In this document: positions 1,279 to 36,231 of the stretch, in pieces
Numbering within the stretch: the stretch's first letter is position 1
Layout: each line of letters starts with the position of its first letter
NCBI GenBank assembly: GCA_029260905.1
Contig: JAJDCH010000002.1
Span: 15,546 to 79,545 of the forward strand
Direction of reading: 5' to 3'
Length of the DNA stretch: 64,000 nt
Source of the DNA: Candidatus Levyibacteriota bacterium
Lineage (GTDB): Bacteria; Patescibacteriota; Microgenomatia; Levybacterales; UBA12049
Program-made: the position numbers and the translations under genes
The notes under the pieces: model-generated
Seen by the model: the letters and a program-made list of their open reading frames with translations, nothing else
Told to the model about the DNA's origin: nothing
Database searches by the model: none

Positions 1279-1300
1279 AAATGCAAGAGTGAAATGGCTC

Positions 1301-1329
1301 TTGACATCATTTGGCAGTCGTGTTATATT
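1301..1329 (+). promoter_or_regulatory. Sigma70-type promoter TTGACA-N17-TATATT upstream of hrcA
   Basis: TTGACA at 1301-1306 and TATATT at 1324-1329, with an exact 17-nt spacer, about 28 nt upstream of the hrcA ATG at 1357. Confidence 0.55.
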
Positions 1330-1337
1330 ATTGCTAA
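1311..1337 (+). promoter_or_regulatory. Degenerate CIRCE-like inverted repeat (HrcA operator candidate) overlapping the hrcA promoter
   Basis: TTGGCAGTC-N9-TATTGCTAA compared with the CIRCE consensus TTAGCACTC-N9-GAGTGCTAA, matching 7/9 in each half. hrcA is encoded immediately downstream. Confidence 0.35.
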
Positions 1338-1356
1338 TTCTGTTAACTTAAGTTCA

Positions 1357-2088
1357 ATGCATAATTTAACTCACAGACAAATAGAAATATTAAAAAGTAT
1401 TATTGAAGAATATATCGAGACAGCTGAGGCTGTTGGATCTGAGACTATTGAGAAGAAACACAATTTGTCAGCAAGCCCTGCAACTATTAGAAATGAGATG
1501 GTAAAGCTTGCAGAATATGGATACATCAAAAAAACCCATTCTTCAGCAGGACGTGTGCCAACAGCAAGGGGACTTAAGTTTTACGTTCATGAGTTGATGA
1601 AAGAAAAAGAGCTTTCAACTGTTGAGGAGGTAGCGCTTAAGGAAAGGGTTTGGGATTATAGAGCGAAAATGCAGAGATTTCTTAAGGAAGCAACAAGATC
1701 TCTTGCAGCAAAAACAAATACTTTGGCAATTGCCACAACAAACGAAGGTGAGCTTTATTGTTCTGGATATGCAAATATTTTAGATATGCCAGAGTTTCTT
1801 GATATAGATTTGACGAAAAACCTACTTGAAGTTTTGGATGAGTATGATGTTTTTTCAAGTATTTTTGCAAATGTCTTACCTGATGATGAAATTCATATCT
1901 TGATTGAGGATGATCTTGGATCAGCACTGAGAGGTCCATACGGATTTATTTTTACTGAGTACTCTACACCATTAAATGGTCATGGGAAGATAGGAGTATT
2001 GGGGCCTGCGCGTCTTGCCTATACATCAATAGTGCCAACTGTTAGATACTTTGGTGATTTGATAAGAACTAGTGCTGAAGGGTGGTAG
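1357..2088 (+). CDS. hrcA: Heat-inducible transcriptional repressor HrcA
   Basis: Winged-helix N-terminus and HrcA-typical segments (SASPATIRNEM, GVLGPARLAYTSI). It sits at the head of a grpE-dnaK-dnaJ operon. The start was moved to the internal Met at 1357, downstream of the promoter. Confidence 0.85.
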   Translation: MHNLTHRQIEILKSIIEEYIETAEAVGSETIEKKHNLSASPATIRNEMVKLAEYGYIKKTHSSAGRVPTARGLKFYVHELMKEKELSTVEEVALKERVWDYRAKMQRFLKEATRSLAAKTNTLAIATTNEGELYCSGYANILDMPEFLDIDLTKNLLEVLDEYDVFSSIFANVLPDDEIHILIEDDLGSALRGPYGFIFTEYSTPLNGHGKIGVLGPARLAYTSIVPTVRYFGDLIRTSAEGW

Positions 2089-2105
2089 GTTCTGCGAAGC
2101 AGAAC
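2089..2105 (+). terminator. Hairpin GTTCTGC-GAA-GCAGAAC directly after the hrcA stop codon (possible attenuating terminator)
   Basis: Perfect 7-bp stem with a 3-nt loop, followed by a short T-containing tract. Confidence 0.3.
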
Positions 2106-2146
2106 GCTTATTGTATGGCATTTAGTTTATGGTTAGTAATCATGCA

Positions 2147-2175
2147 TTGACAGAATAAGGATGAAAATTTAGAAT
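2147..2175 (+). promoter_or_regulatory. Sigma70-type promoter TTGACA-N17-TAGAAT upstream of grpE
   Basis: TTGACA at 2147-2152 and TAGAAT at 2170-2175, with a 17-nt spacer, ending 7 nt before the grpE ATG. Confidence 0.5.
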
Positions 2176-2181
2176 AAAAAA

Positions 2182-2652
2182 ATGGATAAAAAAGAAAAAA
2201 AGAAAGAAAAAAGAGATGAAAGCGCACAGATTGATAAAGAACCAGAAGAGTTAAAAGAAAAGATACATGATTTTGAGGATAAATACAAAAGAGCGCTTGC
2301 GGATTATCAAAATCTTGAAAAAAGAGTGGGTGATCAGAGAATAGAGCTTATTCGGGGAGCAAATCGAGATTTGCTCTTGAGACTTCTTCCGGTTTTGGAT
2401 ACACTGATGCTTGCGAGCGTGCATACAGAAGATCAGGGAGTAAAAGTAACTGTTCAGCAATTTATAGATACATTAAAAAACGAAGGGGTTGAACGGATTG
2501 AGACAAAAGGTGTACAATTTGATCCAACGACCATGGAGGCGATAGCCACAGGGGACGGGAAGGATGGAGAAGTTTTGGAAGAGCTGAGGACTGGTTTTAT
2601 GATAAATGGTAAATTATTAAGACCAGTTCAAGTTAAAGTAGGAAAATCCTAA
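2182..2652 (+). CDS. grpE: Nucleotide exchange factor GrpE
   Basis: Size (156 aa), a K/E-rich N-terminus and its position between hrcA and dnaK. Confidence 0.85.
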   Translation: MDKKEKKKEKRDESAQIDKEPEELKEKIHDFEDKYKRALADYQNLEKRVGDQRIELIRGANRDLLLRLLPVLDTLMLASVHTEDQGVKVTVQQFIDTLKNEGVERIETKGVQFDPTTMEAIATGDGKDGEVLEELRTGFMINGKLLRPVQVKVGKS

Positions 2653-2717
2653 ATACAAATTTCAAAAGTTTTAGGAATTAGAGATTGGAATTTAGAATTT
2701 GTCCTGAAAGGAGATTT

Positions 2718-4631
2718 ATGGGAAAAATAATAGGCATAGACCTAGGAACAACTAATTCATGTGTAGCCGTGATGGAGGGTGGTTCACCAAAGGTGATTCA
2801 TTCAGCTGAAGGGCGTAATGTCATTCCATCTGTTGTGGATCCTGTAACGCATGTTGTCGGAGATGTTGCCAAGAGACAACTTGTTCTTAAGCCAAAGCAG
2901 ACCGTCTTCTCAATCAAGAGACTGATGGGAAGAAAGTTTAAGGATAAGTCAGTTCAGGAAGACATGAAGTGGCTTCCGTATACTGTTAAAGCAGGAAGAA
3001 ATGACATGGCAGTTGTTGAGGTAGATGGTAAAACCTATACCCCTCAGGAGTTATCCGCTCAAATTCTTCAAAAGATTAAATCTGATGCTGAGAGCTATCT
3101 TGGCGATAAGGTGACTCAAGCTGTTATCACAGTTCCTGCTTATTTTGATGATTCAGAGAGACAAGCTACCAAGCAGGCAGGAGAGATTGCTGGACTTGAA
3201 GTTTTGAGGATTATCAATGAGCCAACAGCAGCAGCTCTTGCCTATGGGCTTGATAAGAAAAATGCGCACACCATTGCTGTTTATGATTTGGGTGGTGGTA
3301 CATTTGATATCTCAATCCTAGAGCTTGGAGAAGGTGTTTATCAGGTAAAATCAACTAATGGTGATACTCATCTTGGCGGAGATGATTTTGACCAGAAGAT
3401 AATTAATTATCTTGCTGAAGAGTTTCTAAAAGAAAATAGCGTGGATTTGAGAAAAGATCCTCAAGCTCTGCAAAGACTAAAAGAATCAGCTGAAAAGGCA
3501 AAGATAGAGCTTTCGAGTTCACAAGAAGCACAAATCAATCAGCCATTTATAACTCAGGGAAAAGACGGTCCCCTTCATTTGACTTTGACTCTTACAAGAT
3601 CCAAGCTTGAACAGATTGTAGATGAACTGATTCAAAATACATTAAAGCCTGTTGAGAAGGCATTAGCAGATGCAAAGATAAAAACAACTGATGTTGATGA
3701 AATAATTATGGTTGGTGGCATGACCCGAATGCCAAAAGTGGTTGAAGCAGTCACGAAATTCTTTGGTAAAGAACCAAATAAGTCAGTAAACCCAGACGAG
3801 GTTGTTGCAATAGGAGCAGCAGTTCAGGGAGGGGTTCTTGGTGGTGAGGTAAAAGATGTACTTCTTTTGGATGTGACACCTTTGACACTTGGGCTTGAGA
3901 CGCTTGGTGCTGTTTCTACACCACTTATTGACAGGAATACAACAATTCCAACTAGTAAGTCACAGGTTTTTTCAACTGCTGCTGATAACCAAACACAAGT
4001 AGAGATAAATGTTTTACAGGGTGAGAGATCAATGGCTGCTGATAACAAGTCTTTGGGACGATTTATTCTTGATGGTATTCCGCCTGCGCCTCGTGGCGTG
4101 CCACAGGTTGAGGTGACTTTTGATATTGATGCCAACGGAATACTAAGCGTTTCTGCAAAAGATAAGGCATCAGGAAAGGAGCAAAGCATTAAGATAACAG
4201 GTAGTACTGGTTTATCAAAAGAAGAAGTTGAAAAAATGACAAAAGATGCTGAGTCCCATGCTAAAGAAGATGAGGAGAAAAAGGGTAAGATTGAGGCCCG
4301 AAATCATGCAGATGCTCTTATTTTTACAGCTGAGAAGTCACTTAAAGATGCAGGGGATAAAGTAGCCGATGATGTTAAAAAAGAAGTTGAAGAAAAGACA
4401 AAAGAATTAAAAGATATTTTGGATAGTGGCACCAAAGAAGACTTGGAAACAAAGACTAATGAGCTTTCAGAAACGCTTCAAAAAATTGGTCAAGCAGCAT
4501 ATCAGCAGGGTCAGAAAGCTCAGGAAGAGCCTGAAATTGAAAGCGAAGAAAAGGAAGGTAAGAAAGATGATTCAGAATCTGAGAAGAAAAAAGATAAAGA
4601 CGAACCTGTTGAGGGAGAAGTGGTAGAATAG
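2718..4631 (+). CDS. dnaK: Molecular chaperone DnaK (Hsp70)
   Basis: N-terminal [21 protein letters not shown] and the Hsp70 substrate-binding domain. An AGGAG Shine-Dalgarno sits 7 nt before the ATG at 2718. Confidence 0.95.
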
Positions 4632-4666
4632 CTTTTAGCTTATGGCTTTTAGCTTTCAGGAATTTA

Positions 4667-4687
4667 GAGCGCAGAAGCGCTTTTTTA
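4667..4687 (+). terminator. Rho-independent terminator after dnaK (AGCGC-AGAA-GCGCT plus TTTTTT). A TATAAT at 4689-4694 may give dnaJ its own promoter.
   Basis: 5-bp GC stem and tetraloop, followed by a T6 run. Confidence 0.45.
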
Positions 4688-4706
4688 GTATAATAAAACT
4701 GTTATT

Positions 4707-5597
4707 ATGGCAAGTGAAAAAGATTATTATCAAGTTTTGGGTGTTACCAAATCAGCTAGTGCTGATGAGATAAAAAAGGCTTACCGCAAACTCGCCCTTG
4801 AGTATCATCCAGATCGCAATAAAACTAAAGAGGCAAATAATAAGTTCAAAGAAGTGACAAAGGCCTATGAAGTCCTATCAAATGATCAGAAAAGAAAGAC
4901 CTATGATCAATTCGGACATGCTGCTTTTGAGCAGGGTGGTATGGGAGGGGCAGGCGGCGGCGGTAACCCGTTTAGCGGTGGTCAACAGGGAGGACAATAT
5001 GGGCCATTTAGATACACCTATTCATCAGGCGGGCAGGGATCTGATTTTGATTTTGGAGGTTTTTCAGACCCATTTGAGATATTTGAGCAGTTTTTTGGAG
5101 GAGCGCAAAGACAGAGAAGACCTGCGTATTCAATCAGAATTAATTTTGATGAAGCAGTGAAAGGTGTTGAGAAGCAAGTAAGTATAAATGGTAAACCACA
5201 AAAAATAAAAATACCTCCAGGTGTTGATCGGGGATCTCGTATCAGATTTAGTGAATACGATATTGTGGTAGATGTAACACCTGATCCAAAATTTCAAAGA
5301 GAGGGTGCAGATATAGTTACAGTTGAGGATGTGTCTTTTCCTCAAGCTGCTCTTGGTGGAGAGCTTGAGATCGAAACAGTTCATGGAAAAGTAAAATTTA
5401 AAATACCATCAGGTACGCAGCCTGAAACACTGGTGAGGCTTAGTGGAAAGGGTATGCCAAGGATCAATAAGTCTGGAAATGGTGATCATTATGTCAAAAT
5501 TAAAGTTACAGTTCCTAAGAAGCTGAATAGGGATCAGAAAAAGATTCTGGAAGATCTTCTCAAAGAAGAGAAAAAATCAGGAAAAAGCTGGTTTTGA
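4707..5597 (+). CDS. dnaJ: J-domain co-chaperone (DnaJ/CbpA-like). It has a G/F-rich region but no CxxCxGxG zinc finger.
   Basis: J domain with HPD (YHPDRNK), Gly/Phe-rich linker and C-terminal substrate-binding domains. No Cys-rich repeats are present. Confidence 0.85.
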
Positions 5598-5635: not shown

Positions 5636-6013
5636 ATGGCTCGTTTCGTTCTTTCTATATTTTTTTTGTTTGTTTTTATTTTTTCACCAGTTCAGGTATT
5701 TGCAGCAGGGTCAGGAGCGGATTGTGATTATTCAAAGGAGATAAATACTGATTTTGGTTGTCTTCCCAATGATCCGATTGGATTTGTGCAGGAATTTTAT
5801 GGAATAGGACTTAGCTTTATTGCAGCGCTTTCTCTTTTGGCGTTAATAATTGGAGGCTATAATGTGATGACATCCAAGGGAGATCCACAAAAAGCAAATA
5901 TCGGCAAATCATGGATATTTTATGCAATTGGAGGTTTGGTTCTTGCAATTTTTGGATATATATTTATAAGACTTATAATCGTTGATATTTTGAAGGTTCC
6001 AGGATTCTCATAG
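5636..6013 (+). CDS. VirB2/TrbC-like type IV secretion pilin-like protein (signal peptide plus two hydrophobic helices)
   Basis: 125 aa. Signal peptide, then helix-loop-helix with the loop GGYNVMTSKGDPQKANIGKS. It is a paralog of the C-terminal module of ORF 475..1278. Confidence 0.5.
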   Translation: MARFVLSIFFLFVFIFSPVQVFAAGSGADCDYSKEINTDFGCLPNDPIGFVQEFYGIGLSFIAALSLLALIIGGYNVMTSKGDPQKANIGKSWIFYAIGGLVLAIFGYIFIRLIIVDILKVPGFS

Positions 6014-6016
6014 TTT

Positions 6017-8512
6017 ATGAAAAAACTTCTGCCCAGTCTAATACTCTTTCTTTCTGTTTTTTTGGGAATAATGTTTTTTAATACTCCTCAGACTTTGGCT
6101 ACAGGCGCTTCTCCAGGTACAACTGCAACTACGGTAAGTGATGATAAATTGCCTGCTGGCACATGGAGACAAGATTCTGAAGTTACATTTATAGGTAAAA
6201 GCGCAGCAAGAGCCCGCACCATGCTTGATTGGACTATCCAAAATTATAATTGGATTTGTGTCGAGCGTATAGTAGGCACAAGTCAGTGTAATGATACAGA
6301 TAATCCCCTTCAGTCATTTTGGTTGAGGATTGTTACCTATATTGTGGTACCGCTTTTGTTCGTGGCAGTTTTGATTAGTGCTGCAGTAATCATTATTACA
6401 CGTGGAAGATCTGTTACCATCATGCGGCTTTTACCTCGTTTCTTGGGTGTTGTGATTTTAATCTTTTTTACCTATTCACTTCTGCAGTTTTTTTATCAGT
6501 TCTCTGATTTGATACAAGGATTTTTTCTTCGTCATCCAACAGAAACAGCACAGGATGGGACAACATCTTGTCCCCCAAGCTGTATTGGAACTAAAGATTT
6601 GTTATATGTTGGTTGGGATTATGATACTTTTCTTGGCTTGAGACTCGCAAGCCCAGATGCAAATAATTCAAATGCTGAGTCAGCATTCATGTCGCTTCTT
6701 CTCACCAAAATGACTGCCATGACTTACTACGTAATGGTAGGGATTCTTATTTTGAGGAAGATTATTTTATGGTTTTTTATTGTAGTATCGCCTGTCTTTC
6801 CGTTACTTTTGTTATTTTATCCTATCAGAAACACTGCCAAAATCTGGATTGGTGAGTTTTTCCGTTGGCTTCTTTATGCTCCGCTTTTTGCAATTTTTCT
6901 TCAGGGTCTTGTTTTTATGTGGAGTAATCCAGTTGGAATACCGCTTGACTTTAAATCAACAAAAATAGGAGTTGAGCAGGGCAGGATTGGTTCACCTGCC
7001 AAGGATGAGAATACGCTTTTTCCAACAACAGTAAATATTCTTCTCGGGGGTCCACAGGAGGTTGTAACTATTAGCAATAGTATTAATCTTACAGAAACAT
7101 TTGCGAAGTATGTTGTTGCTCTTTTGATGCTTTGGGGCGTTATCATTCTACCCTGGATACTCCTTCAGATCTTTTTGGATTATTCATCCAATTTTTCTGT
7201 AGGTGATACAGCTGTGATGAGAACCCTTCTTAATGTTAAAAATAAACCCCCAGCTCCTACTGGCACCCCTCCGAGTACCGGTCCGCCATTTAGCTTACCA
7301 TTTGCAAAGAAATTTGATTTGCGTCCTCCACAAACCCCACCCTCTGCACCAACTGGAGTAGCCAAGGAATTGCCTATTAGTACAGGTCGAATGATGCAGT
7401 CACATAATATGCCATCAGCTCAGATTAAGGCTCAGACTCTTAGTCTTTCAAATGTTACCCTTCCAACAATTCGTGATATTGCAAAATACGACACAGCAAT
7501 CACTTCTCGTGATACTACCAAGCAACAGGATATTATTAGGATGAGAGATACTCTGACAAAGATCGGTAATCCTGCAAGTTCCAGTTCTGACAGCCAGCGT
7601 TACACCGAAGTCCGCAGCAAGCTAACAAAAGAAAGCCAAGATGGAAATCAGTTGGCAGCATCAATTCTTAGCGCAGCAAATATAGCTACCAACAAGTCTG
7701 CTCAAAATCAAAATAGGCAAATAAAGAATGTTCTTAACCAGATAGCTAATCCAACAACAGCACCAGCTGTTACAAAGAAATTTGACACTCAAAAAGTTGC
7801 TCAGCTTCATGATTCGCTTGCTAAAGCAAGTAAGCAAGGAAACGCTTTGGCAACTTCTATTCTTTCAGTTGATGAAAAGACATCAGAAAAAGAAATTGAG
7901 GCATTGAAAGAGAAAATAGCACAGGCTAAAAAACGAAGCGATAAGCTTGCAGCTGAGGTGTTAGATGTTACAGATAAAGAAGTGGAAGCAGGCCTTCCTG
8001 CCGTAAATAGAGTTCAGACTGTCAGTCAGCAGGATTACCAGGCAGTTAAGGATATGTGGAGAGAGAATTACAAGAATCTTGAAGTTCCACAAGGCATGGC
8101 CGGAACAAGATCAGATTGGATCAAAGAAGATGTTGAAAAAATTAATAATATTGTAAACATGCTTTCATCAACCAGTCCGGATGACATGAAGAAGGGAATG
8201 GATGAAGTTTCTGATATTTTGCCTTTCCTTCTGGTTGGTGGCTTCTCTCAGACAGAAATTATATCTTATTTGAAGGCAAAGAAAGAAGCAGGACAAGAAG
8301 TAAATAGTCAACTTGCCACAGAGGAGGATGATAAGGTAGAGGTTTCAACACAGAAAGCAGAAACAAAACGAGAGATGGCTGCAACGCTTGAAGAGGAAGA
8401 TGCTACAAAGGGACAGGAGGCAAGTCAACCGTCATCTGTTTCTGTTCCTGATGAACCAAAAGTTGATGATGAAAAAGCAGTTAAGCCTGCAGATGAGAAC
8501 AAAAAACAATAA
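6017..8512 (+). CDS. Polytopic membrane protein, possibly VirB6/TrbL-like. It has a long hydrophilic C-terminal tail carrying repeats.
   Basis: Signal/anchor sequence, at least 6 predicted TM helices, then a P/T-rich linker. A C-terminal repeat module (KASKQGNALATSILS...) is homologous to the C-terminus of the downstream Clp ATPase. Confidence 0.45.
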   Translation: MKKLLPSLILFLSVFLGIMFFNTPQTLATGASPGTTATTVSDDKLPAGTWRQDSEVTFIGKSAARARTMLDWTIQNYNWICVERIVGTSQCNDTDNPLQSFWLRIVTYIVVPLLFVAVLISAAVIIITRGRSVTIMRLLPRFLGVVILIFFTYSLLQFFYQFSDLIQGFFLRHPTETAQDGTTSCPPSCIGTKDLLYVGWDYDTFLGLRLASPDANNSNAESAFMSLLLTKMTAMTYYVMVGILILRKIILWFFIVVSPVFPLLLLFYPIRNTAKIWIGEFFRWLLYAPLFAIFLQGLVFMWSNPVGIPLDFKSTKIGVEQGRIGSPAKDENTLFPTTVNILLGGPQEVVTISNSINLTETFAKYVVALLMLWGVIILPWILLQIFLDYSSNFSVGDTAVMRTLLNVKNKPPAPTGTPPSTGPPFSLPFAKKFDLRPPQTPPSAPTGVAKELPISTGRMMQSHNMPSAQIKAQTLSLSNVTLPTIRDIAKYDTAITSRDTTKQQDIIRMRDTLTKIGNPASSSSDSQRYTEVRSKLTKESQDGNQLAASILSAANIATNKSAQNQNRQIKNVLNQIANPTTAPAVTKKFDTQKVAQLHDSLAKASKQGNALATSILSVDEKTSEKEIEALKEKIAQAKKRSDKLAAEVLDVTDKEVEAGLPAVNRVQTVSQQDYQAVKDMWRENYKNLEVPQGMAGTRSDWIKEDVEKINNIVNMLSSTSPDDMKKGMDEVSDILPFLLVGGFSQTEIISYLKAKKEAGQEVNSQLATEEDDKVEVSTQKAETKREMAATLEEEDATKGQEASQPSSVSVPDEPKVDDEKAVKPADENKKQ

Positions 8513-8555
8513 TACTTGTCGTTTGGGTCTATTAGTGATAAATTGTAATTAAGAT

Positions 8556-11500
8556 ATGTTTGGGAAATTATTTGATCAAAAAAAAGAAGATGATCAAAAT
8601 GCTGCTGCCCCCCAACAGGGACAGGCTACTCAGTATTTTGATCAGCCACCTCCTGGTCAGCAACAGGTAGCACCGAATCAACCGGCTCAGCAAGTAGTTG
8701 CTCAACAGCCAGTAGCACCGACGCCTACTCCTCAAGCTAGTCCTGCAGATAACGCTGCTTCTCCAATTCAGAGTCAGGTTTCACCTCCTGTTGATGGAGC
8801 AACTTCAGCACAGCAGCAAGAACCTATACAGCCAGACACCTCTGCTGCACTTACTCATCTTGACCCTTTAGCAACTCAGGTTTTGACACGAGCGCAGGAA
8901 GAAACAAAAAGAATAAATCAACAGTTTATTGAACCCGAACAGATTTTACTTGCGATAATAAATGATCAGCAGACATATAAGCTTTTGGATGAGTTTAAGA
9001 TTGACGGAGGAGCTCTTTCAAAAGAAATTCAGTCAAAAGAGACAATGGGCGTTTTTAAGTCTCAGCCAACCCTTAGTCCTGTCTCGCAGAAGATTTTTGA
9101 TGCATCTTACAAAGATGCAAAGAATAGAGGCTCCAACTTTGTCACTCCTCAGGATATTTTTATACAGCTTTTATCCAAAGATTATCCTGTTTCAAATTAT
9201 CTAACAAGCAAAGGGCTTATGAAAGAAGCAGTAATTGAAAAGATGGCAAAAAACGCTGATCTTAATTATTCACATAAAACTATTCTTGAAACATATGCAA
9301 CAGACCTAACAGAGGAAGCGCGAACAGGCAAGCTTGATCCTGTTGCAGGACGTGAAAAAGAAGTTGATAGGATTGTTCATATTTTACTTCGAAGAACTAA
9401 AAATAACCCGATTATAATAGGAGAAACTGGAGTTGGAAAAACAGCAATAGTTGAGGGGCTTGCCCAGCAAATCGCAGCTGGTCAGGTTCCAAAAGATTTA
9501 CAAAATAAAAGAGTTTTTCAGCTTGATGTCTCATCTCTTATTGCAGGAGCCTCCCACAGGGGTGAATTTGAAGAAAGACTGCGTGGTGTTGTGAATGAAG
9601 TAATGGGATCCAATAATACAATTATTCTTTTTATTGATGAAATCCACAGTCTCTTAGGAACTGGTGATGGTGAAGGAATGAGTGCAGCAAACATCATAAA
9701 ACCACACCTTGCTCGTGGTCATTTGCAAATGATCGGTGCCACGACAACTATTGAATATAGAAAAAATTTTGCGAAAGACAAGGCGTTTGAGAGACGATTT
9801 CAGCCAGTTACTGCTGAGGAGCCATCTGAGGAAAATGCAGTCGAGATGCTTAAGGTTTTGAGACAAAAATATGAGAAGTTTCATAAGGTAGAAGTTTCTG
9901 ATGATACTTTGGTTGAGTGTGTGAAGCTCTCAAAGAAATATATTGGTGAACGTTATCTACCTGACAAGGCAGTTGATCTTTTGGATGAAGCATGTTCTGA
10001 GGTAAAATTGCAGATAGATGCAGGAAAGAGAAAAGAAGCTCAAGTAAGAAAAGGAGACATAGAAAAAGTTGTCAGTATTTGGACTGGTATTCCTATTACC
10101 AAATTAACAGAAGATGAAAGTCAAAAGCTTCTTAAGCTTGAAGATAGAATTCATAAGAGACTGATTGATCAGGAGCAGGCAGTTGTTGCTGTTGCTGAAG
10201 CGGTAAGGCGTGGAAGAATAGGTCTTGCTGCTGCAAATAGACCAATTGCATCCTTTATATTCCTTGGCCCAACAGGCACGGGTAAGACGGAACTTGCAAA
10301 GACTTTGGCGGAGCTTCTTTTTGGAAGAGATGACGCGATGGCAAGGCTTGACATGTCTGAGTATATGGAGAAGCATGAGGTTGCTAAGCTAATTGGCGCG
10401 CCACCAGGATATGTTGGTTATGAAGAGGGTGGTCAGCTCACAGAAGCAGTTCGCAAGAAGCCTTATTCAATCGTTCTTCTTGACGAGATCGAAAAAGCGC
10501 ATCCTGATGTTTTTAATATACTTTTACAGCTTCTTGAAGATGGAAGACTTACAGATAATAAAGGAAATACAATTTCTTTTAAGAATACAATTGTTATTTG
10601 TACGTCCAATATTGGTAGTAGCTTGATTCAGCAGAAATTAAATGAGCATGATTCAAAGACAGCAAAGACCAAGGAAGAATCAGAAAAACTATTCGAAGAA
10701 TTAACAGCTCTTGCAAAAGAAGAATTGGTCAAATTTTTCAGGCCTGAGCTTTTGAACAGATTTGATGAGACAGTTATTTTCAGGCCTCTTCTGCTTGAGC
10801 ATATGGCCGGCATCACAAGACTTGGTATTAAGAAAACAGCAGGTCTTTTGAAGGAGCAGGGATATAATCTTCAGATTACAGAAAAAGCAATTGCGCAACT
10901 TGCAAAAGATGGTTACGATCCTGTTTATGGGGCAAGACCTCTGAGAAGGCTTATTCAAACAGCGATTGAAAATCCTGTGGCGCTTGAGATTATATCCAAA
11001 AGATTTACACCTGGAGATACAATCTTAATTGATTATGATTCTGAGAAAAATACATTCGTGTTTACAAAAGGTGAGCAGAGCAAGGTATTTAATTCTGAAA
11101 ACATTAAAAAGACTTTGATGGGTGTTTTGCATCCTGAAACAGCCAGCGAAGATGATAAGGAAAAGCTGAAAATCCTGCATGATAAGGTCGAAGAAGCAGC
11201 CAAAAACGGTAATGAGCTAGCAGCAAGGATAATGGCTATGTCTGATGCAACAACAGCTGAAGAGACTCAAAAGATAATGGATGATTTGAAGGTTGCGCGA
11301 GAGAAAGAGGATCCTGTTTCTGCAGATATTTTAGCCTACGTTAATGCTGTTCTTTCAGCGCAAGCAACAGTAGAGCAGGAAGCTGATCCGATGTTTATAT
11401 TCAAGAAAAAGCTTCAGCAAATAGCAAATCCTTTGTATACAGCTGATGAAAAAGATAAAGAAAAATTTAATCATCTAAATGATATGCTTACAAAAGCTAG

Positions 11501-12059
11501 TCAGGAAAACAACGAATGGGCAAAAACTATACTGGCTTTAACAGATCAGACATCTGATACAGATATAGAAAAAATAAAAACAGATCTTGAAAAAGCAAAG
11601 GCAAATGGAGATCAGTTGGCAATCAACGTCCTGCAGGCGATATCTGATTCTGAGACAGCTGAGGTGGCTGGGTCCAGTCAAGAAGAAACTACCAAAGAAC
11701 CAGTTGCTGGCGCAGAAGATAAAAAAGCTGAGGGGGTACCACCTGTTCCAGTATCAGTGGCTGATCAGCCAAAAGAAGTGGTAAAGCCCGCTGTTGATTC
11801 ATCAAAAGGTGCGCCGTTTGGTTTGGCAAACGCGCCAAGTGCGCCTGACACAAGTCATATTACACCAGTTGAGTCCGTTGTTGCAGATCAGCCCGTTGTA
11901 GTTGCAGGAAATCCTGCGCCAGTTGAACCAACACCTCCTGCATCAGGAGGAGCGACCCTATCACAAAGTGCTGGAATGACAGCTTTGAATGAGCACTTAG
12001 AAAAAGAAAACAACATCATTTCTACCTCAGTCGAATCCGATGGTGAGAATATTTCCTAA
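8556..12059 (+). CDS. Clp-family AAA+ ATPase with two nucleotide-binding domains. It is ClpA-like, with no ClpB M-domain, and has an N-terminal Q/P-rich extension and a C-terminal repeat extension.
   Basis: Clp N-domain repeats. D1 Walker A IIIGETGVGKT; D2 Walker A FLGPTGTGKTE. LLDEIEKAHPDVFNILLQLLEDGRLTD and GARPLRRLIQ are present. The D1-D2 linker is short, like ClpA. No IG[FL] ClpP-docking tripeptide was seen. Confidence 0.8.
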   Translation: MFGKLFDQKKEDDQNAAAPQQGQATQYFDQPPPGQQQVAPNQPAQQVVAQQPVAPTPTPQASPADNAASPIQSQVSPPVDGATSAQQQEPIQPDTSAALTHLDPLATQVLTRAQEETKRINQQFIEPEQILLAIINDQQTYKLLDEFKIDGGALSKEIQSKETMGVFKSQPTLSPVSQKIFDASYKDAKNRGSNFVTPQDIFIQLLSKDYPVSNYLTSKGLMKEAVIEKMAKNADLNYSHKTILETYATDLTEEARTGKLDPVAGREKEVDRIVHILLRRTKNNPIIIGETGVGKTAIVEGLAQQIAAGQVPKDLQNKRVFQLDVSSLIAGASHRGEFEERLRGVVNEVMGSNNTIILFIDEIHSLLGTGDGEGMSAANIIKPHLARGHLQMIGATTTIEYRKNFAKDKAFERRFQPVTAEEPSEENAVEMLKVLRQKYEKFHKVEVSDDTLVECVKLSKKYIGERYLPDKAVDLLDEACSEVKLQIDAGKRKEAQVRKGDIEKVVSIWTGIPITKLTEDESQKLLKLEDRIHKRLIDQEQAVVAVAEAVRRGRIGLAAANRPIASFIFLGPTGTGKTELAKTLAELLFGRDDAMARLDMSEYMEKHEVAKLIGAPPGYVGYEEGGQLTEAVRKKPYSIVLLDEIEKAHPDVFNILLQLLEDGRLTDNKGNTISFKNTIVICTSNIGSSLIQQKLNEHDSKTAKTKEESEKLFEELTALAKEELVKFFRPELLNRFDETVIFRPLLLEHMAGITRLGIKKTAGLLKEQGYNLQITEKAIAQLAKDGYDPVYGARPLRRLIQTAIENPVALEIISKRFTPGDTILIDYDSEKNTFVFTKGEQSKVFNSENIKKTLMGVLHPETASEDDKEKLKILHDKVEEAAKNGNELAARIMAMSDATTAEETQKIMDDLKVAREKEDPVSADILAYVNAVLSAQATVEQEADPMFIFKKKLQQIANPLYTADEKDKEKFNHLNDMLTKASQENNEWAKTILALTDQTSDTDIEKIKTDLEKAKANGDQLAINVLQAISDSETAEVAGSSQEETTKEPVAGAEDKKAEGVPPVPVSVADQPKEVVKPAVDSSKGAPFGLANAPSAPDTSHITPVESVVADQPVVVAGNPAPVEPTPPASGGATLSQSAGMTALNEHLEKENNIISTSVESDGENIS

Positions 12060-12114
12060 ATTTGGGATTTGGTTATTTCATTTGTAATTTCTGCGTATTC
12101 TCCATATACTAAAT

Positions 12115-12450
12115 GTGAGCATGAATTCTTATCTGTCTATTCCACTTATTATTTTGAAGTTTTGGTATTTTGAGGCGCCAAGGGGAATTCTTGGTTATTT
12201 TGGATCGCTTAATAAAGCTTTTTTTGATTTCTTTTCACTACCTCTTTTTCTTAAGACCTATTTTAAGCCCCTGAAAAATGAATACAGACAAGGCTTGGTT
12301 GGTTTCTCAAGAGCAATGGGAATTATCATAAAGACAGGCTTTATTGTGATTGATCTGATAATCTTAGCCACTCTTTTAGTATTTGAGATAGGAGTAATTG
12401 TCGGATTTTTGGCATTTCCGATTCTTACTTTTTGGATGTTGTTTGTTTGA
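12115..12450 (+). CDS. Small membrane protein (hypothetical)
   Basis: 111-aa ORF with hydrophobic helices, lying between the two Clp-like genes. Confidence 0.4.
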   Translation: MSMNSYLSIPLIILKFWYFEAPRGILGYFGSLNKAFFDFFSLPLFLKTYFKPLKNEYRQGLVGFSRAMGIIIKTGFIVIDLIILATLLVFEIGVIVGFLAFPILTFWMLFV

Positions 12451-12459
12451 AAAGAAAAT

Positions 12460-14868
12460 ATGTTTTTTTACGCACGAATTTATCATTTTTACAGGCGAGC
12501 TTTATTAAGAGCCATACGCCTTTTTGTTTTTGCTGTTTTGCTTCTTATTATTTGGCCAAGTGTAGAGGCAGGAGGCTTGCCGAAAATTCCACTTTTCTTG
12601 TTTAATCTTTTTGTTATTTGGGAGATATTTTTTCATTTTAAGATTGGGCGTGTGATGCCTAGTTTAACAATTGAAAAGAATCAAAAAAAAGATCCTTATT
12701 TATCTTTTACACTCCAGGCAATTCTTCCATTTGTAGAGGAAGTAAAGACAGGAAATATTATAAGAAAAATTGTTAAGTACCCGCAAATTAAAGCCATAAT
12801 GCAAAAAGCAGACATAGAAGACAAAGACTTGAATTTTCCAGATGTGCCAGTTGATCTTTTGGCGCAATCCGCTTTTGAAACAGCACGTACGTTCAGGGCA
12901 AAATATGTGACATCTATTGATCTTTTTGCAGCATACATTTTTCTTATAGAGAAAGACACCGAGCTTCTTTTTGCCAAACAATTAAAGATAGATGATCTAA
13001 ATAATATTGTACGTTGGGCAAAGATAGAGTATCCAGATGAAGAAGAGCCCAAGAAAATAAGGACAGGGTCGTTGGGTGAGGGAATAGGAGAAGTATTAAC
13101 AACTGGATGGACTTATGAAACCAAAAAATATACAGTATCATTTTCATCTATTGCTCTTGGCAATAAACCTTTGATACTTGGGAGAGAGGCTGAATTTCGA
13201 CAATTAATTGAGACACTTATAAAAATAGAAAATAATAATGTGCTGCTGGTTGGAAATATAGGTGCGGGAAAGGAGAATTTGGTGCGGGCATTTTCTTATT
13301 ATTCTTTTACGGGTGAGCTTGGAGGGCTTCTCAATTACAAAAAAGTACTTCAACTTCTTACTGGTGCATTGACAGCTGGCGCATCACAAAGAGGAGATCT
13401 TGAAGTACGACTCCAAGAAATAATTGCTGAGATATCACATGCTGAGAATGTGCTTATTTATATACCTGATATTGAAAATATACTTGGTGGCGCGTCCTAC
13501 AACCTTGATTTATCAGGGGCACTGCTTCCTTATCTCAAGACAGGCAATCTGCCGGTTGTGGCAACTATGACAACTGGTGCTTACAAAACCTACATGGAGA
13601 AAAATCCGATTAAGGAGGCTTTTACTGTTATAAGTCTTTCAGATCCAGGCCCTGATGTTGCAACACAAATGGTACTTAGTGAGGCAAAAAAGATTGAGAA
13701 AAAATACAATGCCATCATTACATATGGTGCTGTTAAATCTTCTGTTGAGTTAGCCGGGAGATTTCTTCAGGATCAGGTACTTCCGGGTAGTGCTGTATCA
13801 CTTCTTGAGACAGTTGCAAATAAAGTTGCGCTTGATAAAAACGTTGTTTATTTTGAGCATACCAAGAAAAAAGCAGTTCTCAAGGATCATGTGGTTAGTG
13901 AGGTGGAGACTGAGGCGCATGTGGCAATCGGCACACCAAGCGATCAGGAGATAGAGCTACTTTTACATCTTGAGGAGAGGCTTCATGCGCGGGTTATCCA
14001 TCAGGATGAGGCCATCACTGCCATATCTGAGGCGATGAGAAGAGTCAGATCGGGAATGAGTACTAGCGAGAGGCCTGTCTCATTTTTGTTTCTTGGCCCA
14101 ACTGGTGTGGGCAAGACTGAGACAGCCAAGGCTCTTGCTGATTTTTATTTTGGTGGTGTCAAAAATATGATCAGGCTTGATATGAGTGAGTACTCAGATG
14201 ATGCGGGAGTAAGGCGTCTTCTTGGAGCGCTTCCAGGTGAGGGACAGGAAAGAGGAGAGCTGACTGATAAGATTCATGATAATCCAGCAAGCCTTGTTCT
14301 TCTTGATGAGTTTGAAAAAGCAAATCCCAAGATTCATAATTTATTTCTCCAGGTTTTGGATGATGGACGATTAACTGATAATAAAGGTGTGACTGTAAGT
14401 TTCCGTAACGCCATAATCATCGCCACATCCAATGCAGGATCTGAATTTATTCGTGAAGAAGTGGGAAAAGGTGTGGCAGTTGATAAAAGTTTTCAAAGAA
14501 ATCTGCTCGAGCATCTTCAGACTAATAGGCTTTTTAAGCCTGAACTTCTTAATCGATTTGATGATGTAGTTACCTTTAAACCACTTGCCAATGAAGACGT
14601 AATTCAAGTTGTAAAATTAATGCTTGGCAACTTGATTAAAACAATGGCTGAACAAGATATAGTCCTCGCCTTTGATGATGCTGTTATTGAGAAGATTAGC
14701 AAAGAAGGTTTTGACGCGCAGTTTGGGGCTAGGCCACTGAAGCGTTATATTCAGGATAATCTTGAGGACATAATTGCCCAGAAAAAACTTACAAAAGAAC
14801 TGGATAGAGGCAAGAGAGCTTCTTTCTCAATTGATGGAACAGGCGCGCTGACTGTAACCATTTCGTAA
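12460..14868 (+). CDS. Membrane-anchored Clp-like AAA+ protein. D1 is degenerate; D2 is intact but lacks the pore-loop tyrosine.
   Basis: N-terminal TM helices. D1 Walker A is GNIGAGKE and D1 Walker B is IPDIEN (degenerate). D2 has FLGPTGVGKTE, LVLLDEFEKA and GARPLKR intact. GALPGEGQ replaces the GYVG pore loop. Confidence 0.7.
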   Translation: MFFYARIYHFYRRALLRAIRLFVFAVLLLIIWPSVEAGGLPKIPLFLFNLFVIWEIFFHFKIGRVMPSLTIEKNQKKDPYLSFTLQAILPFVEEVKTGNIIRKIVKYPQIKAIMQKADIEDKDLNFPDVPVDLLAQSAFETARTFRAKYVTSIDLFAAYIFLIEKDTELLFAKQLKIDDLNNIVRWAKIEYPDEEEPKKIRTGSLGEGIGEVLTTGWTYETKKYTVSFSSIALGNKPLILGREAEFRQLIETLIKIENNNVLLVGNIGAGKENLVRAFSYYSFTGELGGLLNYKKVLQLLTGALTAGASQRGDLEVRLQEIIAEISHAENVLIYIPDIENILGGASYNLDLSGALLPYLKTGNLPVVATMTTGAYKTYMEKNPIKEAFTVISLSDPGPDVATQMVLSEAKKIEKKYNAIITYGAVKSSVELAGRFLQDQVLPGSAVSLLETVANKVALDKNVVYFEHTKKKAVLKDHVVSEVETEAHVAIGTPSDQEIELLLHLEERLHARVIHQDEAITAISEAMRRVRSGMSTSERPVSFLFLGPTGVGKTETAKALADFYFGGVKNMIRLDMSEYSDDAGVRRLLGALPGEGQERGELTDKIHDNPASLVLLDEFEKANPKIHNLFLQVLDDGRLTDNKGVTVSFRNAIIIATSNAGSEFIREEVGKGVAVDKSFQRNLLEHLQTNRLFKPELLNRFDDVVTFKPLANEDVIQVVKLMLGNLIKTMAEQDIVLAFDDAVIEKISKEGFDAQFGARPLKRYIQDNLEDIIAQKKLTKELDRGKRASFSIDGTGALTVTIS

Positions 14869-14952: not shown

Positions 14953-15447
14953 TTACTCATTTTTTGTCACTCTTGCTAGTCCTTCTACTTTAATGTCCTG
15001 ACCTGCTATATCTTGAAATACTTCTTCAGTTAATGATCTCGCCCGGGTAGTTGGAAATTCTTTATTTTTATTTAATATTTCAAAAGGAATACCGTTAATA
15101 ACAATGACCTTAGAAAGACCTTCGTAAAGCAAACGTTCTGAATCTGATGGTCTCCCCAGTGTTCCCGCATCTTCAATTCTGATTAAGCCTGCTTCAGGGA
15201 TTTTTAATTTGCCTCTAGAGACTGCTAATTTAATTTTTCTATCACTCTCAGCAGCTAGGTCTACAAATGAAACTCCCAAAGGGCTTGTGTATGTCACATG
15301 ACTAAGAGTTCTTTCCTGAACCCCCCCCAAGTAATTTCTTCCTGATGCGTCGATAATTTCTGTTCTGACAAACATCAAGGTTCTTGGCTGTGTTCCCCTC
15401 GTTATCCCCTTTACAATATCCCTTGTTAGAAGTTCTGCTCGTACCAT
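14953..15447 (-). CDS. Hypothetical protein (164 aa)
   Basis: Clean ORF divergent from nusA. No family recognised with confidence. Confidence 0.5.
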   Translation of the reverse strand: MVRAELLTRDIVKGITRGTQPRTLMFVRTEIIDASGRNYLGGVQERTLSHVTYTSPLGVSFVDLAAESDRKIKLAVSRGKLKIPEAGLIRIEDAGTLGRPSDSERLLYEGLSKVIVINGIPFEILNKNKEFPTTRARSLTEEVFQDIAGQDIKVEGLARVTKNE

Positions 15448-23271: not shown

Positions 23272-24606
23272 ATGGATCCAACTGCCCAAAATCCACAAAA
23301 TCCTGCAGGCGCGACCACAGCTCAAACACCGCAACAGCCAACACCTGAGGAGCAGGCTGCTGCAGGGAGGGGAGATGCAGCACCTATTCAAAATAGCACT
23401 GTTCAGGCGCAAAACTCATCTGAGGCTGAGGCTTTGAGTAAGGTTGCATCTGTTAATTCTGCACAAATGATAAATAACGATAAGACTCAATTTGAGGCCA
23501 ATCAGGCGCAAAATAGCACGAACACACCAGTAACTGATCATGGAAGATCTTCTGATCAGATCCGCGTGCTTGGTGAAAAAATTGAAAAAGCAGCAATTCC
23601 TGAGGATTTCAAAAAAGAACTGCTTGATCGTATTTCACGGCTTGCAATGATAAGATCAAGCGCCGGTTTTCTTAGCTCAACCTACATAATGGAGTATGAA
23701 TCAACCAATAGATTTGTTAATTGGGTTCTTAGTCTTCCGTGGGGCAAGAAAAGTGAGGACGTGCTTGATCTCAACCGCGCCAAGGAGTGGATGGATAAAA
23801 ATCACTATGGACTTGAGCCGCTTAAACAAAGAGTGCTGGAGTATATAGCATCACTAATGTTAAATATCAAGAATTATGGTCAGACAGAAAATGTAATAAA
23901 GGCGCCAATTCTTTGCATAGTAGGTCTTGCCGGAACTGGTAAAACGACTTTTGCAAGATCTCTTGCTGGAGCCTTAGGTAGAGAGTTTGAGCGTATTCCA
24001 TTTGGAGGTATGGCTGATTCGCGCGTATTGAGAGGTCAGTCGCGTTATTTTCCTGATGCAGAACCTGGACAAGTTATGAAGAGACTTGCAAAGGCGGGTA
24101 CTAATAATCCTGTTATTCTTCTTGATGAGTTGGATCGTGTAACTGATACAGCAAGAGCTGATATCATGGGTGTTCTTATTGAGATACTTGATCCGGAACA
24201 AAACGCCAGATTTACTGATCATTACATAGACTATCCATTTAGCTTGCAAAACGTTTTATTTGTCGCAACAGCAAATAATGTCAGCAGTGTTTCAACTGCC
24301 GTTCTTGACCGTTTAGAAATAATACAAATGCCATCATACAATGATGAAGAAAAAACAGTTATCGGACGGGATTTTGTGTTGCCAAAGACAATGCAAACAA
24401 CTGGTCTTAAGCCTGAGCAGATGACTATTGATCCTGCTGTTTGGGAAGGGTTGGTGCGTCCTCTTGGTTATGATCCTGGTGTCCGTGGACTTGAGCGGGT
24501 CATAACTGGAATGTGTAGAAAAGCTGCGAAAATAATCATATCTGGTCAGGCGCAATCAGTTGTCATAAATAACGAAAATGTGAAACAGTTTTTGCCTGAG
24601 TGGTAA
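23272..24606 (+). CDS. Lon-family AAA+ ATPase module with no LAN N-terminal domain and no S16 protease domain. The N-terminus is Q/N/A-rich low complexity.
   Basis: Strong colinear similarity to the Lon coiled-coil and AAA+ region: LPWGKKSEDVLDLNRAKEWMDKNHYGLEPLKQRVLEYIA, GLAGTGKTT, VILLDELDRV, EILDPEQNARFTDHY, VLDRLEII and DPGVRGLERVITGMCRKAA. The ORF ends where the Lon protease domain would begin. Confidence 0.75.
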   Translation: MDPTAQNPQNPAGATTAQTPQQPTPEEQAAAGRGDAAPIQNSTVQAQNSSEAEALSKVASVNSAQMINNDKTQFEANQAQNSTNTPVTDHGRSSDQIRVLGEKIEKAAIPEDFKKELLDRISRLAMIRSSAGFLSSTYIMEYESTNRFVNWVLSLPWGKKSEDVLDLNRAKEWMDKNHYGLEPLKQRVLEYIASLMLNIKNYGQTENVIKAPILCIVGLAGTGKTTFARSLAGALGREFERIPFGGMADSRVLRGQSRYFPDAEPGQVMKRLAKAGTNNPVILLDELDRVTDTARADIMGVLIEILDPEQNARFTDHYIDYPFSLQNVLFVATANNVSSVSTAVLDRLEIIQMPSYNDEEKTVIGRDFVLPKTMQTTGLKPEQMTIDPAVWEGLVRPLGYDPGVRGLERVITGMCRKAAKIIISGQAQSVVINNENVKQFLPEW

Positions 24607-35500: not shown

Positions 35501-36229
35501 TTATATCTTCTCAGCTTTTGATTTTATTATCAACCTTTTCCAGGTTGTACCAGGCGGTGTACATGTAACAATTGTTAGATAAGAGCCGTCATATTGTTGA
35601 GTTAGATACGAGGTGTCTTCGGCATCAGTAACTGAGATATCAAATATTTTGTAATTATAAATTTTTCCATCTGATGAGACCTGAATATCATCGCCTGGTT
35701 TTACGCTATGAATATTGGCAAAGATCGTTTTATAGTTTTTTGGATCAAAAAGCTGTGGAAGGGTTGAGTGACCAAAAATGACAGATGTGCCACGATTTGG
35801 GGGTATAGCAGTTCCTGGAAAATTGACAAGATTGGAGGAAAGGTCAAGATTAACGGTTGAAGCTATTACATCTTTTATGCCGATTGATTCAATAGACAGA
35901 TAAAAAAACGATACATTACTTTCCTCCTCTTTTTTATGTGACGGTGGTAACCAGTTAGGATTGCCATTAAAATTAACACTTGAGATAGATTCTGCTGTGG
36001 TTTCAAAAAAGCTTTTTATAGAGTTTTTTGAAAGAATAAATTTTTGTGGGATAGGTGATGTATAAGTGCTGCTAGCAAAAGCAGGTTTTACGTAAAGTTC
36101 CCATGAAAGAATTGGAAACATCACATAAAGTCCGAAAAATAGACCAAGAAGTGAAATACCAAGTCCGCCAAGCCTTATTGTTTTTTTGATTTTTTTGGTG
36201 TCTGCTTTTTTGTAAACTTTTTTAATCAT
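35501..36229 (-). CDS. Sortase (transpeptidase)
   Basis: N-terminal TM anchor, His in IFGHSTL, the TLxTC motif LTIVTCTP with the catalytic Cys, and a conserved Arg (WKRL). Confidence 0.8.
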   Translation of the reverse strand: MIKKVYKKADTKKIKKTIRLGGLGISLLGLFFGLYVMFPILSWELYVKPAFASSTYTSPIPQKFILSKNSIKSFFETTAESISSVNFNGNPNWLPPSHKKEEESNVSFFYLSIESIGIKDVIASTVNLDLSSNLVNFPGTAIPPNRGTSVIFGHSTLPQLFDPKNYKTIFANIHSVKPGDDIQVSSDGKIYNYKIFDISVTDAEDTSYLTQQYDGSYLTIVTCTPPGTTWKRLIIKSKAEKI

Positions 36230-36231
36230 AT

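Follow-up and report, generated by a model that had tools for sequence, protein, structure and literature searches.

We analysed a 64,000-nucleotide stretch of DNA from a Candidatus Levyibacteriota bacterium (assembly GCA_029260905.1, contig JAJDCH010000002.1, positions 15,546 to 79,545; hereafter the window) and found a five-gene cluster which, judged by sequence comparison, is a lineage-wide operon in which two components of type IV secretion system (T4SS) origin are joined to a re-tooled Hsp100 ATPase inside the HrcA/DnaK operon. The five open reading frames (ORFs) lie on the plus strand and encode a two-helix pilin of VirB2 type (T4SS_pilin; 5636 to 6013, 125 residues), a VirB6-like membrane protein (6017 to 8512, 831 residues), a Clp-family ATPase, Clp1 (8556 to 12059, 1167 residues), a small membrane protein (12115 to 12450, 111 residues, GTG start) and a second Clp-family protein, Clp2 (12460 to 14868, 802 residues). 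The intervals between genes are 38, 3, 43, 55 and 9 nt, the first being that from dnaJ to the pilin gene. An earlier note on this DNA had described five co-oriented, tightly spaced genes after the dnaK operon, and all five ORFs were found where it had placed them. Directly 5′ of the pilin gene is the heat-shock operon hrcA-grpE-dnaK-dnaJ (1294 to 5597, plus strand), recognised by Pfam HrcA, GrpE, HSP70 and DnaJ. The parts of the cluster are of known kinds (VirB2, VirB6 and Hsp100), each of which falls short of its closest family in at least one defining test. We tentatively propose, at somewhat under an even chance, that the pilin and the VirB6-like protein form a T4SS-derived membrane platform whose repeat-bearing tail recruits a dedicated Hsp100 unfoldase that is uncoupled from DnaK and independent of ClpP.

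The gene order was counted across Levybacteria in the best 80 of 138 relatives from a scan of species-representative genomes, with ORFs labelled by the window proteins (individual loci carry L numbers). In 72 of 74 loci the pilin gene immediately precedes the VirB6-like gene, which Clp1 immediately follows in 67 of 69. dnaK lies upstream of the pilin-VirB6-Clp1 trio in 56 of 61 loci. Two arrangements are seen, dnaK-dnaJ-pilin-VirB6-Clp1 in 44 loci and dnaK-pilin-VirB6-Clp1-dnaJ, with dnaK directly before the pilin gene, in 23; in L013, L023 and L028 the trio is intact and lies away from dnaK. As the trio is contiguous in either dnaJ order and also away from dnaK, the conserved unit is pilin-VirB6-Clp1. 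Its cohesion on moving with respect to dnaJ and on leaving the dnaK operon further argues that the tightest partner of Clp1 is VirB6 and not dnaK. The earlier note had made its idea depend on conservation of the five-gene order in relatives; with the trio contiguous in 67 of 69 loci, the order is strongly conserved and the idea survives on this point. The pair formed by the small membrane protein and Clp2 follows downstream in 26 of the 33 loci with enough sequence.

Two further observations concern these loci. L063 (10001-16756) and L084 (10001-16798) are the two exceptions, carrying a VirB6 paralogue with no adjoining pilin or Clp gene, followed by two subtilase (S8) genes and lepA. A large secreted multi-peptidase with M4 thermolysin and M28 domains is encoded near the cluster in 42 of loci L005-L084 (representative, L056 15762-18911).

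The trio is usually part of the heat-shock operon, and a position inside hrcA-grpE-dnaK-dnaJ allows a plain co-regulation reading, the main rival to the one proposed here. In that case Clp1 would be a general Hsp100, and the pilin and VirB6-like protein would be ordinary T4SS parts put, for their expression, into a stress-responsive operon of high activity, with VirB4 near dnaA and no coupling between them. We regard this as a serious although somewhat unlikely explanation. It accounts for the presence of dnaK upstream of the trio in most loci, whereas the persistence of the trio when it moves relative to dnaJ or leaves the dnaK operon altogether is not what co-regulation by itself would lead one to expect.

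The product of the first gene has the layout of VirB2. Its exported N-terminal piece carries a Cys pair; two transmembrane (TM) helices with a basic cytoplasmic loop follow, and the C-terminus bears a conserved IPGF[SK] motif. Against Pfam T4SS_pilin (PF18895) the window pilin scores 24.5 bits, slightly below the cut-off of 26.6, and 38 of 39 pilin orthologues match this family (best E 2.5e-8), consistent with the VirB2-like two-helix pilin first suggested. The pilin is highly conserved (40-68% identity). NCBIfam gave a weak match to a pilin-like conjugal transfer family (NF045849, pilin-like protein of integrative and conjugative elements, ICEs), and a pilin profile run against PDB sequences returned only TM helices of G protein-coupled receptors. 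The signal peptide of the window pilin is 23 residues long. Most orthologues (loci L005-L082) are about 98 residues long and begin at the Cys motif; these ORFs are too short for a signal peptide, and therefore the N-terminal piece must be exported differently there.

The VirB6-like protein consists of a membrane domain of VirB6 fold (residues 1-395; 6017 to 7201, plus strand), in which a signal peptide is followed by an exported N-domain containing Cys and by 5 long TM helices, and a long tail. Pfam TrbL (PF04610) matches the window protein weakly (16.9 bits, E 0.0057), below its 25.9-bit gathering cut-off, and is matched by 7 of 28 homologues at E up to 0.01 (best 4.4e-6). The AlphaFold2 (AF2) model of residues 1-468, with a predicted local distance difference test (pLDDT) score of 63.7, shows a signal peptide and five long helices, and the five best Foldseek matches of the membrane-domain model are all TrwI. 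Hence by Pfam sequence score the protein falls outside VirB6, whereas by its predicted fold it falls within. A profile of the family run against PDB sequences returned designed helical bundles only. The charges of the loops, +4.4 (128-141), +2 (245-250), +2.1 (266-284) and −1.6 with Cys (166-222), together with the five-helix model, favour five TM passes and a tail that is probably cytoplasmic. The VirB6/TrbL-like character claimed in the earlier note is thus retained on the strength of the TrwI fold, TrbL being a weak match, whereas its count of at least 6 TM helices gives way to a signal peptide plus 5 long TM helices as the more likely arrangement.

The tail (residues ~475-831) contains two copies of a helical-hairpin repeat (7541 to 7726 and 7718 to 7969, plus strand; independent E-values (i-E) of 1.7e-16 and 7.3e-25 with a hidden Markov model (HMM) of the module). 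They are followed by a conserved C-terminal domain (7997 to 8311, plus strand; LPxVNRxQxVSxEDYxAVKDMW ... ILPFLLxGGFSQTEI) with nearly invariant alignment columns and then by an acidic disordered end that runs up to 8512. AF2 predicts the tail to be all-alpha with a pLDDT of 69, rising to ~70-88 in the repeat part. No relatives of the tail were detected in Pfam or the PDB, where Foldseek matched it to non-specific helical proteins only. Owing to the helical-repeat tail, the total length of family members varies from 700 to more than 2,700 residues.

The best match of Clp1 is E. coli ClpB (E 5e-202), aligned in two blocks, residues 113-490 against ClpB 17-408 and residues 495-831 against ClpB 529-852. 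ClpB residues 409-528 are without a counterpart in Clp1, and therefore the whole of the M domain is missing; a short D1-D2 junction without the M domain was found in 64 of 64 Clp1 orthologues. The M domain is the site through which DnaK works with ClpB. The Clp1 core (8871 to 11060, plus strand) comprises Clp_N, D1, D2 and D2-small and is ClpB-like, although it lacks an M domain; it also has no ClpP loop. All 64 orthologues have invariant Walker A and B motifs in both rings and an invariant GYVG loop in D2, and in 60 of them the pore-loop Tyr of D1 is replaced by His. The ClpP-docking motif of ClpA and ClpC is an [LIV]-G-[FL] loop in D2, and no conserved G-[FL] was found in the D2 loop region of the 64 orthologues. 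Having lost the DnaK-binding M domain and being unable to dock ClpP, Clp1 would be targeted by other means. These features bear in opposite directions on mere co-regulation: a Clp1 that retains all the catalytic motifs of a working ClpB-type ATPase would suit a general Hsp100, whereas a Clp1 without an M domain would not.

Equivalog models confirm that Clp1 stands apart from the named Hsp100 subfamilies. It scores 858.8 bits against ClpB (TIGR03346; cut-off 1232.1), 703.3 bits against ClpA (TIGR02639; cut-off 993.15) and 656.9 bits against TssH (cut-off 884.95). The earlier description as a ClpA-like double-ring Clp protein with N- and C-terminal extensions is correct as to rings and extensions, but ClpB is the better match and Clp1 resembles ClpA only in the absence of the M domain, having no ClpP loop. 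Its relatives in the PDB include HSP101 (6e10).

Beyond the core Clp1 is extended by ~105 residues at the N-terminus and ~330 residues at the C-terminus. The N-terminal extension (8556 to 8870, plus strand) starts with an M[FL]GxLF peptide, present at the start of the examined orthologues, and continues as a Q/P-rich linker of ~100 residues; the median distance from the first Met to Walker A is 306 residues in the examined orthologues, compared with ~205 residues in E. coli ClpB. At the C-terminus there are two copies of the repeat module (11103 to 11339 and 11400 to 11642, plus strand; i-E 2.3e-20 and 8.7e-27) and a low-complexity tail (11643 to 12059, plus strand) that ends in the clade-conserved ...VESDGENIS. 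A weak match of Clp1 948-1028 with the M domain of ClpB (i-E ~250) is not significant and was not used.

A homologous C-terminal module common to the membrane protein and the first Clp protein had been noticed before, and BLASTP of the VirB6-like protein against Clp1, with composition correction applied, bears this out (E 3e-11). Run over the first 84 loci (~1.5 Mb), an iterated, locally built HMM of the module, whose unit is ~80 residues, picked up 402 copies. They lie in 105 ORFs, which encode 82 VirB6-like and 23 Clp1 proteins and no others. A six-frame scan of the window confined the module to the VirB6-like protein and Clp1, with two copies in each. The 23 Clp1 orthologues carry 2-5 copies per protein, and for 82 of 83 Clp1 copies the nearest relatives are Clp1 copies of other species. 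The Clp1 copies thus derive from a single acquisition that was then kept; on sequence grounds this points to one old event, vertically inherited and maintained by selection. The module is also present in the VirB6 tails of distant homologues, and Clp1 is without it outside the window's clade, for example in L003. A large-database search with Clp1 845-1035, the module region, gave nothing at E up to 1e-3.

Under co-regulation without coupling, the shared repeat would be a generic helical spacer swapped between neighbouring genes. The absence of the module from most Clp1 orthologues is in its favour, whereas the vertical inheritance of the Clp1 copies indicates that they were not recently copied from the neighbour.

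A VirB4-family ATPase is a hallmark present in all known T4SSs. The earlier note had reported no VirB4, VirD4 or VirB11, and indeed we found none of the three in the 64 kb window. Nor did any of the 80 Levybacteria loci have an ATPase of these types within 10 kb; the large ORFs there that showed a Walker A motif and were still unassigned encode FtsK and a Lon-like AAA protein only. The page of Table S1 of PMC12102498 that lists Levybacteria records VirB4 in 20 of their 44 genomes and marks it absent from the other 24, with nearly all the neighbouring lineages on that page being VirB4-positive. Two of the genomes marked there as VirB4-absent carry the full cluster, L046 (RIFCSPHIGHO2_01_FULL_37_33) and L053 (RIFCSPLOWO2_01_FULL_38_21). 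As the absences on that page come from draft metagenome-assembled genomes (MAGs), they are suggestive and not proof. The claim that Clp ATPases replace the T4SS motors therefore goes beyond the evidence, with VirB4 listed in 20 of the 44 genomes and the absences drawn from drafts. The same entries cut both ways for co-regulation: VirB4 in 20 genomes would fit ordinary T4SS parts with a motor elsewhere, whereas its absence from 24, against its near universality in the neighbouring lineages of the table, would not.

Clp2 has a TM hairpin near its N-terminus (~12508-12639, plus strand), after which Pfam and NCBIfam indicate a Clp_N-like region, a pseudo-D1 and a D2 ATPase that is intact. Aligned with Clp1 over 561 columns, it shows 35% identity, and it scores 424.1 bits against the ClpB equivalog (TIGR03346), below the cut-off of 1232.1. 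Its 35 orthologues have lost the acidic pair of Walker B in D1 and keep both Walker motifs of D2, and neither ring has the pore-loop aromatic residue. Without pore-loop aromatics in either ring, Clp2 is unlikely to be a threading unfoldase. The membrane anchor and the inactive D1 recognised by the earlier note are thus confirmed by the TM hairpin and the lost Walker B, but not its reading of Clp2 as an unfoldase. A search with the N-terminal 240 residues of Clp2 found 7 fragments only. The gene that is always found directly 5′ of Clp2 encodes the 111-residue protein, a conserved membrane protein of ~110 residues with the motif FSLPLFxxTFFKPLKNEYRQGLVGFS (alignment of 46 sequences) and no Pfam or NCBIfam match. 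A role in anti-phage defence (PADLOC, e.g. Dodola DolB) was set aside, Clp1 and Clp2 giving partial AAA-domain matches only and the other four scanned proteins none.

An exhaustive search with the VirB6-like protein gave 406 cluster representatives at E up to 1e-3 among 1.84 billion, which marks the family as small and restricted to one lineage. The closest relatives are all labelled as, or group with, Candidatus Levybacteria/Levyibacteriota, and a public protein collection holds a protein identical to the 831-residue one. Homologues of 33-50% identity occur in other contexts: after rnpA-yidD-yidC-jag, ~5.5 kb from dnaA (8 loci), near recF, with an SLT_3 lysozyme-like protein (14 loci), and with SpoIID or ComM. 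In L097 only 3 kb separate such a homologue from an ATPase that has TrwB/TraG domains and that is matched best, within the PDB, by DotL and TrwB; an ATPase resembling the type IV coupling protein was seen only near this sister-clade homologue and neither in the window nor in the 80 loci. T4SS genes of Patescibacteria are placed in the origin-proximal region by PMC12102498, which describes them as dispersed in Microgenomatia, with VirB6 ‘scarce’, and makes no mention of Clp or dnaK. The origin-proximal T4SS setting of the distant VirB6 homologues marks the layout in Levybacteria as a derived one. The comparisons suggest that a T4SS VirB6 and pilin became fixed next to an Hsp100, which then lost its M domain. 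The dispersal of T4SS genes in Microgenomatia and the scarcity of VirB6 (PMC12102498) are also in keeping with co-regulation alone, since the VirB6-like family could simply be the missing VirB6.

The sister clades show further features. The Clp1-like protein of L089 (6050-10489) has 1479 residues, with a linker of ~70 residues at the position of the M domain and a 350-residue insertion at the position of the D2 ClpP loop of ClpA/ClpC that contains four motif repeats of ~60 residues (…W.K……W……YF…). In L085, L087, L089, L092, L094 and others a different TM protein, of ~65 residues and with a CxxC, precedes the VirB6 homologue, and a conserved membrane or exported protein of 550-690 residues with no family match follows it.

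The model that we favour, of a membrane platform recruiting Clp1, would work as follows. The VirB6-like protein would oligomerise in the membrane and hold pilin subunits in the manner of VirB6 in the R388 T4SS. Its repeat tail, probably cytoplasmic, would serve as a docking arm for Clp1, a contact that we infer. Targeting of Clp1 could depend on its conserved N-terminal peptide and, in the window's clade, also on the 2-5 module copies that it has in common with the VirB6 tail. With its intact D2 pore loop, Clp1 would pull on membrane-embedded clients, the candidates being the cytoplasmic loop of the pilin or the VirB6 tail, and the direction of this work could lead to extraction, assembly or recycling of the pilin or the platform. 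In a canonical T4SS such work falls to VirB4. The co-expressed DnaK, DnaJ and GrpE may handle hydrophobic products. Clp2 and its 111-residue partner would constitute a membrane-anchored ATPase without pore loops, more likely an anchor or regulator than a threader. The stronger version, a Clp-powered pilus or secretion machine independent of VirB4, with Clp1 as the motor, tethered through the VirB6 tail and helped by Clp2, would amount to a new class of envelope apparatus, but we consider it unlikely.

Several points weigh against recruitment of a dedicated Clp1 by the platform. Clp1 may be the only Hsp100 of the cell and a general chaperone, and a clpB gene beside the dnaK operon occurs in ordinary bacteria. 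A simple reading of the hydropathy would permit 6 TM segments, and in that case the VirB6-like tail could be extracellular. Only 23 of ~64 Clp1 orthologues carry the module, and so it cannot be a general docking device; L003 is a VirB6-Clp1 pair in which Clp1 is without it. Of 23 sister-clade loci, only 3, L089 among them, have a Clp1-like gene in the 6 kb downstream of the VirB6 homologue. Furthermore, the VirB4 absences on the page of Table S1 (PMC12102498) come from draft MAGs and rest on a single HMM, and with VirB4 in ~45% (20/44) of the Levybacteria listed there the motor must lie elsewhere in many relatives.

The same linkage and re-tooling of Clp1 would also suit an export channel in which Clp1, seated on a VirB6 oligomer, unfolds cytoplasmic proteins and passes them along a VirB6/pilin conduit to the cell surface or into a host, replacing both VirD4 and VirB4. 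The Plasmodium translocon of exported proteins (PTEX), in which the ClpB-like HSP101 is physically coupled to a membrane pore, is the precedent for such coupling (HSP101-EXP2), and HSP101 is among the PDB relatives of Clp1. The lack of T4SS ATPases nearby is compatible with this proposal, as is the frequent absence of VirB4 from the Levybacteria listed on the page of Table S1 (PMC12102498). On the other hand, no candidate substrates or signal were identified, there is no evident docking ring or adaptor comparable to PTEX150, and a strongly conserved single-copy pilin resembles a structural partner. In R388 (7o3v), VirB6 is a platform at the base of the stalk and is not known to be a protein pore. 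An export channel of this kind is, in our estimation, quite improbable. Finally, weak pilin matches to ICE pilin-like families (NF045849) and the VirB6-like proteins typical of conjugative elements could suggest an ICE or plasmid module lying by chance beside chaperone genes, but we reject such a remnant as very improbable, given the uniform GC content across the region (~0.37-0.41), the absence of an integrase, relaxase, tRNA or repeat boundary, and the same chromosomal position in ~70 species-level genomes.

Comparison with known systems shows how far each likeness extends. A T4SS_pilin-family pilin directly 5′ of a polytopic protein of VirB6 fold resembles VirB2/VirB6 (TrwL/TrwI) of T4SSs, and the distant homologues are origin-proximal, as in the Patescibacteria T4SS (PMC12102498), one of them beside a coupling-protein-like ATPase. 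In contrast, the Levybacteria locus is without VirB4 and VirD4, its pair lies within the dnaK operon with the gene for a Clp ATPase next in line, and its pilin is conserved (40-68% identity), whereas variable pilin arrays are reported in Patescibacteria. With ClpB/Hsp104, the partner of DnaK-DnaJ-GrpE, Clp1 has in common two rings, intact Walker motifs, the D2 GYVG, the lack of a ClpP loop and a gene in the dnaK operon; it differs in deletion of the M domain (409-528), the change of the D1 Tyr to His, and addition of the N-terminal peptide and linker and the C-terminal repeats. ClpV (TssH) is a ClpP-independent Hsp100 paralogue that services an adjacent type VI secretion system (T6SS) and offers the nearest precedent for the specialisation of a Clp ATPase to an envelope machine. 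However, the window has no T6SS genes, and the partner here is a membrane platform with a pilin rather than a contractile sheath. PTEX (HSP101-PTEX150-EXP2) is eukaryotic, works in another compartment and has a pore protein unrelated to VirB6.

Rickettsiales RvhB6 and F-plasmid TraG likewise have a VirB6-like membrane domain followed by a very large C-terminal extension, but here the extension is a helical-hairpin repeat plus a conserved C-domain, with no Pfam or PDB relatives and partly common to a Clp ATPase. As a type-II AAA+ protein with a dead D1 that is held at the membrane with a small membrane partner, Clp2 recalls Pex1/Pex6-Pex15, Msp1, FtsH and Torsin-LAP1; unlike these it belongs to the Hsp100 family and has neither pore-loop aromatics nor a protease domain. 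In the literature we found no description of a VirB6-Clp linkage, of a ClpB without M domain in such a setting or of a membrane-anchored bacterial Hsp100, and no paper describing the gene combination as a whole, in agreement with the earlier note, which did not recognise it as a described system.

The cluster provides a testable link between a VirB2/VirB6 platform and the Hsp70/Hsp100 chaperones, and it defines two unusual forms of Hsp100, a ClpB that lacks the M domain and a Clp protein that is anchored in the membrane and has no pore loops. If Clp1 does service or drive the platform, it would be the second Hsp100, after ClpV, dedicated to a bacterial envelope machine, and a VirB2/VirB6 module would be able to do without VirB4. 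Attachment to other microbes is the way of life of Patescibacteria, and the cluster addresses the question of how their minimal T4SS-like machines are powered and maintained. T4SS-like genes are essential for this attached lifestyle according to a genetic study as it is cited in PMC12102498. The VirB6-like family is also a candidate for the VirB6 found ‘scarce’ in Microgenomatia (PMC12102498).

A second protein with a T4SS_pilin domain is encoded at 475 to 1278 on the minus strand, divergently from hrcA. It has 267 residues with Cys-rich exported N- and C-terminal parts and matches PF18895 at E 2.2e-10 and NF045849 at 38.6 bits. Homologues of 190-480 residues lie 5′ of hrcA in ~20 loci, in the closest relatives only, and the protein is possibly related to the five-gene cluster. 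Despite the presence of hrcA, no controlling inverted repeat of chaperone expression (CIRCE; TTAGCACTC-N9-GAGTGCTAA) was found anywhere in the window with up to 3 mismatches. Promoter and terminator scans of the window were uninformative. Between dnaK and dnaJ there is a hairpin with a T-run at 4666-4683, followed by TATAAT.

Downstream of the cluster are nusA-infB, and the remaining genes of the window are housekeeping genes (pnp, RNase J, ftsK, alaS, rpoBC, rpsL/G, lepA, groEL, murJ, serS and secA). The GC content of the window is even (0.35-0.44), with no tRNA or Rfam matches. The 735-nt gap between Clp2 and nusA contains a 164-residue ORF (14953-15447, minus strand). This ORF matches no family, and nothing corresponds to it in the 80 related loci, in which nusA comes directly after Clp2; it may not be a real gene. 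An AAA+ protein of 444 residues with a Lon-type lid and no protease domain (Pfam AAA, Lon_lid) is encoded at 23272-24606 (plus strand), with a homologue of 452 residues in L028. The ORF at 26447-28912 (plus strand) encodes an acidic Gly/Asp/Glu/Ser-rich protein of 821 residues without a Pfam or NCBIfam match and lies in the only stretch of raised GC in the window (0.436), which has strong GC skew; being acidic and of low complexity, with no P-loop, it was ruled out as a hidden VirB4. At 35501-38550 (minus strand) a sortase gene adjoins one for a 772-residue protein with weak Baseplate_J and GlxA beta-barrel matches. The 772-residue protein may be a sortase substrate, and the pair is also kept in L063 and L084.

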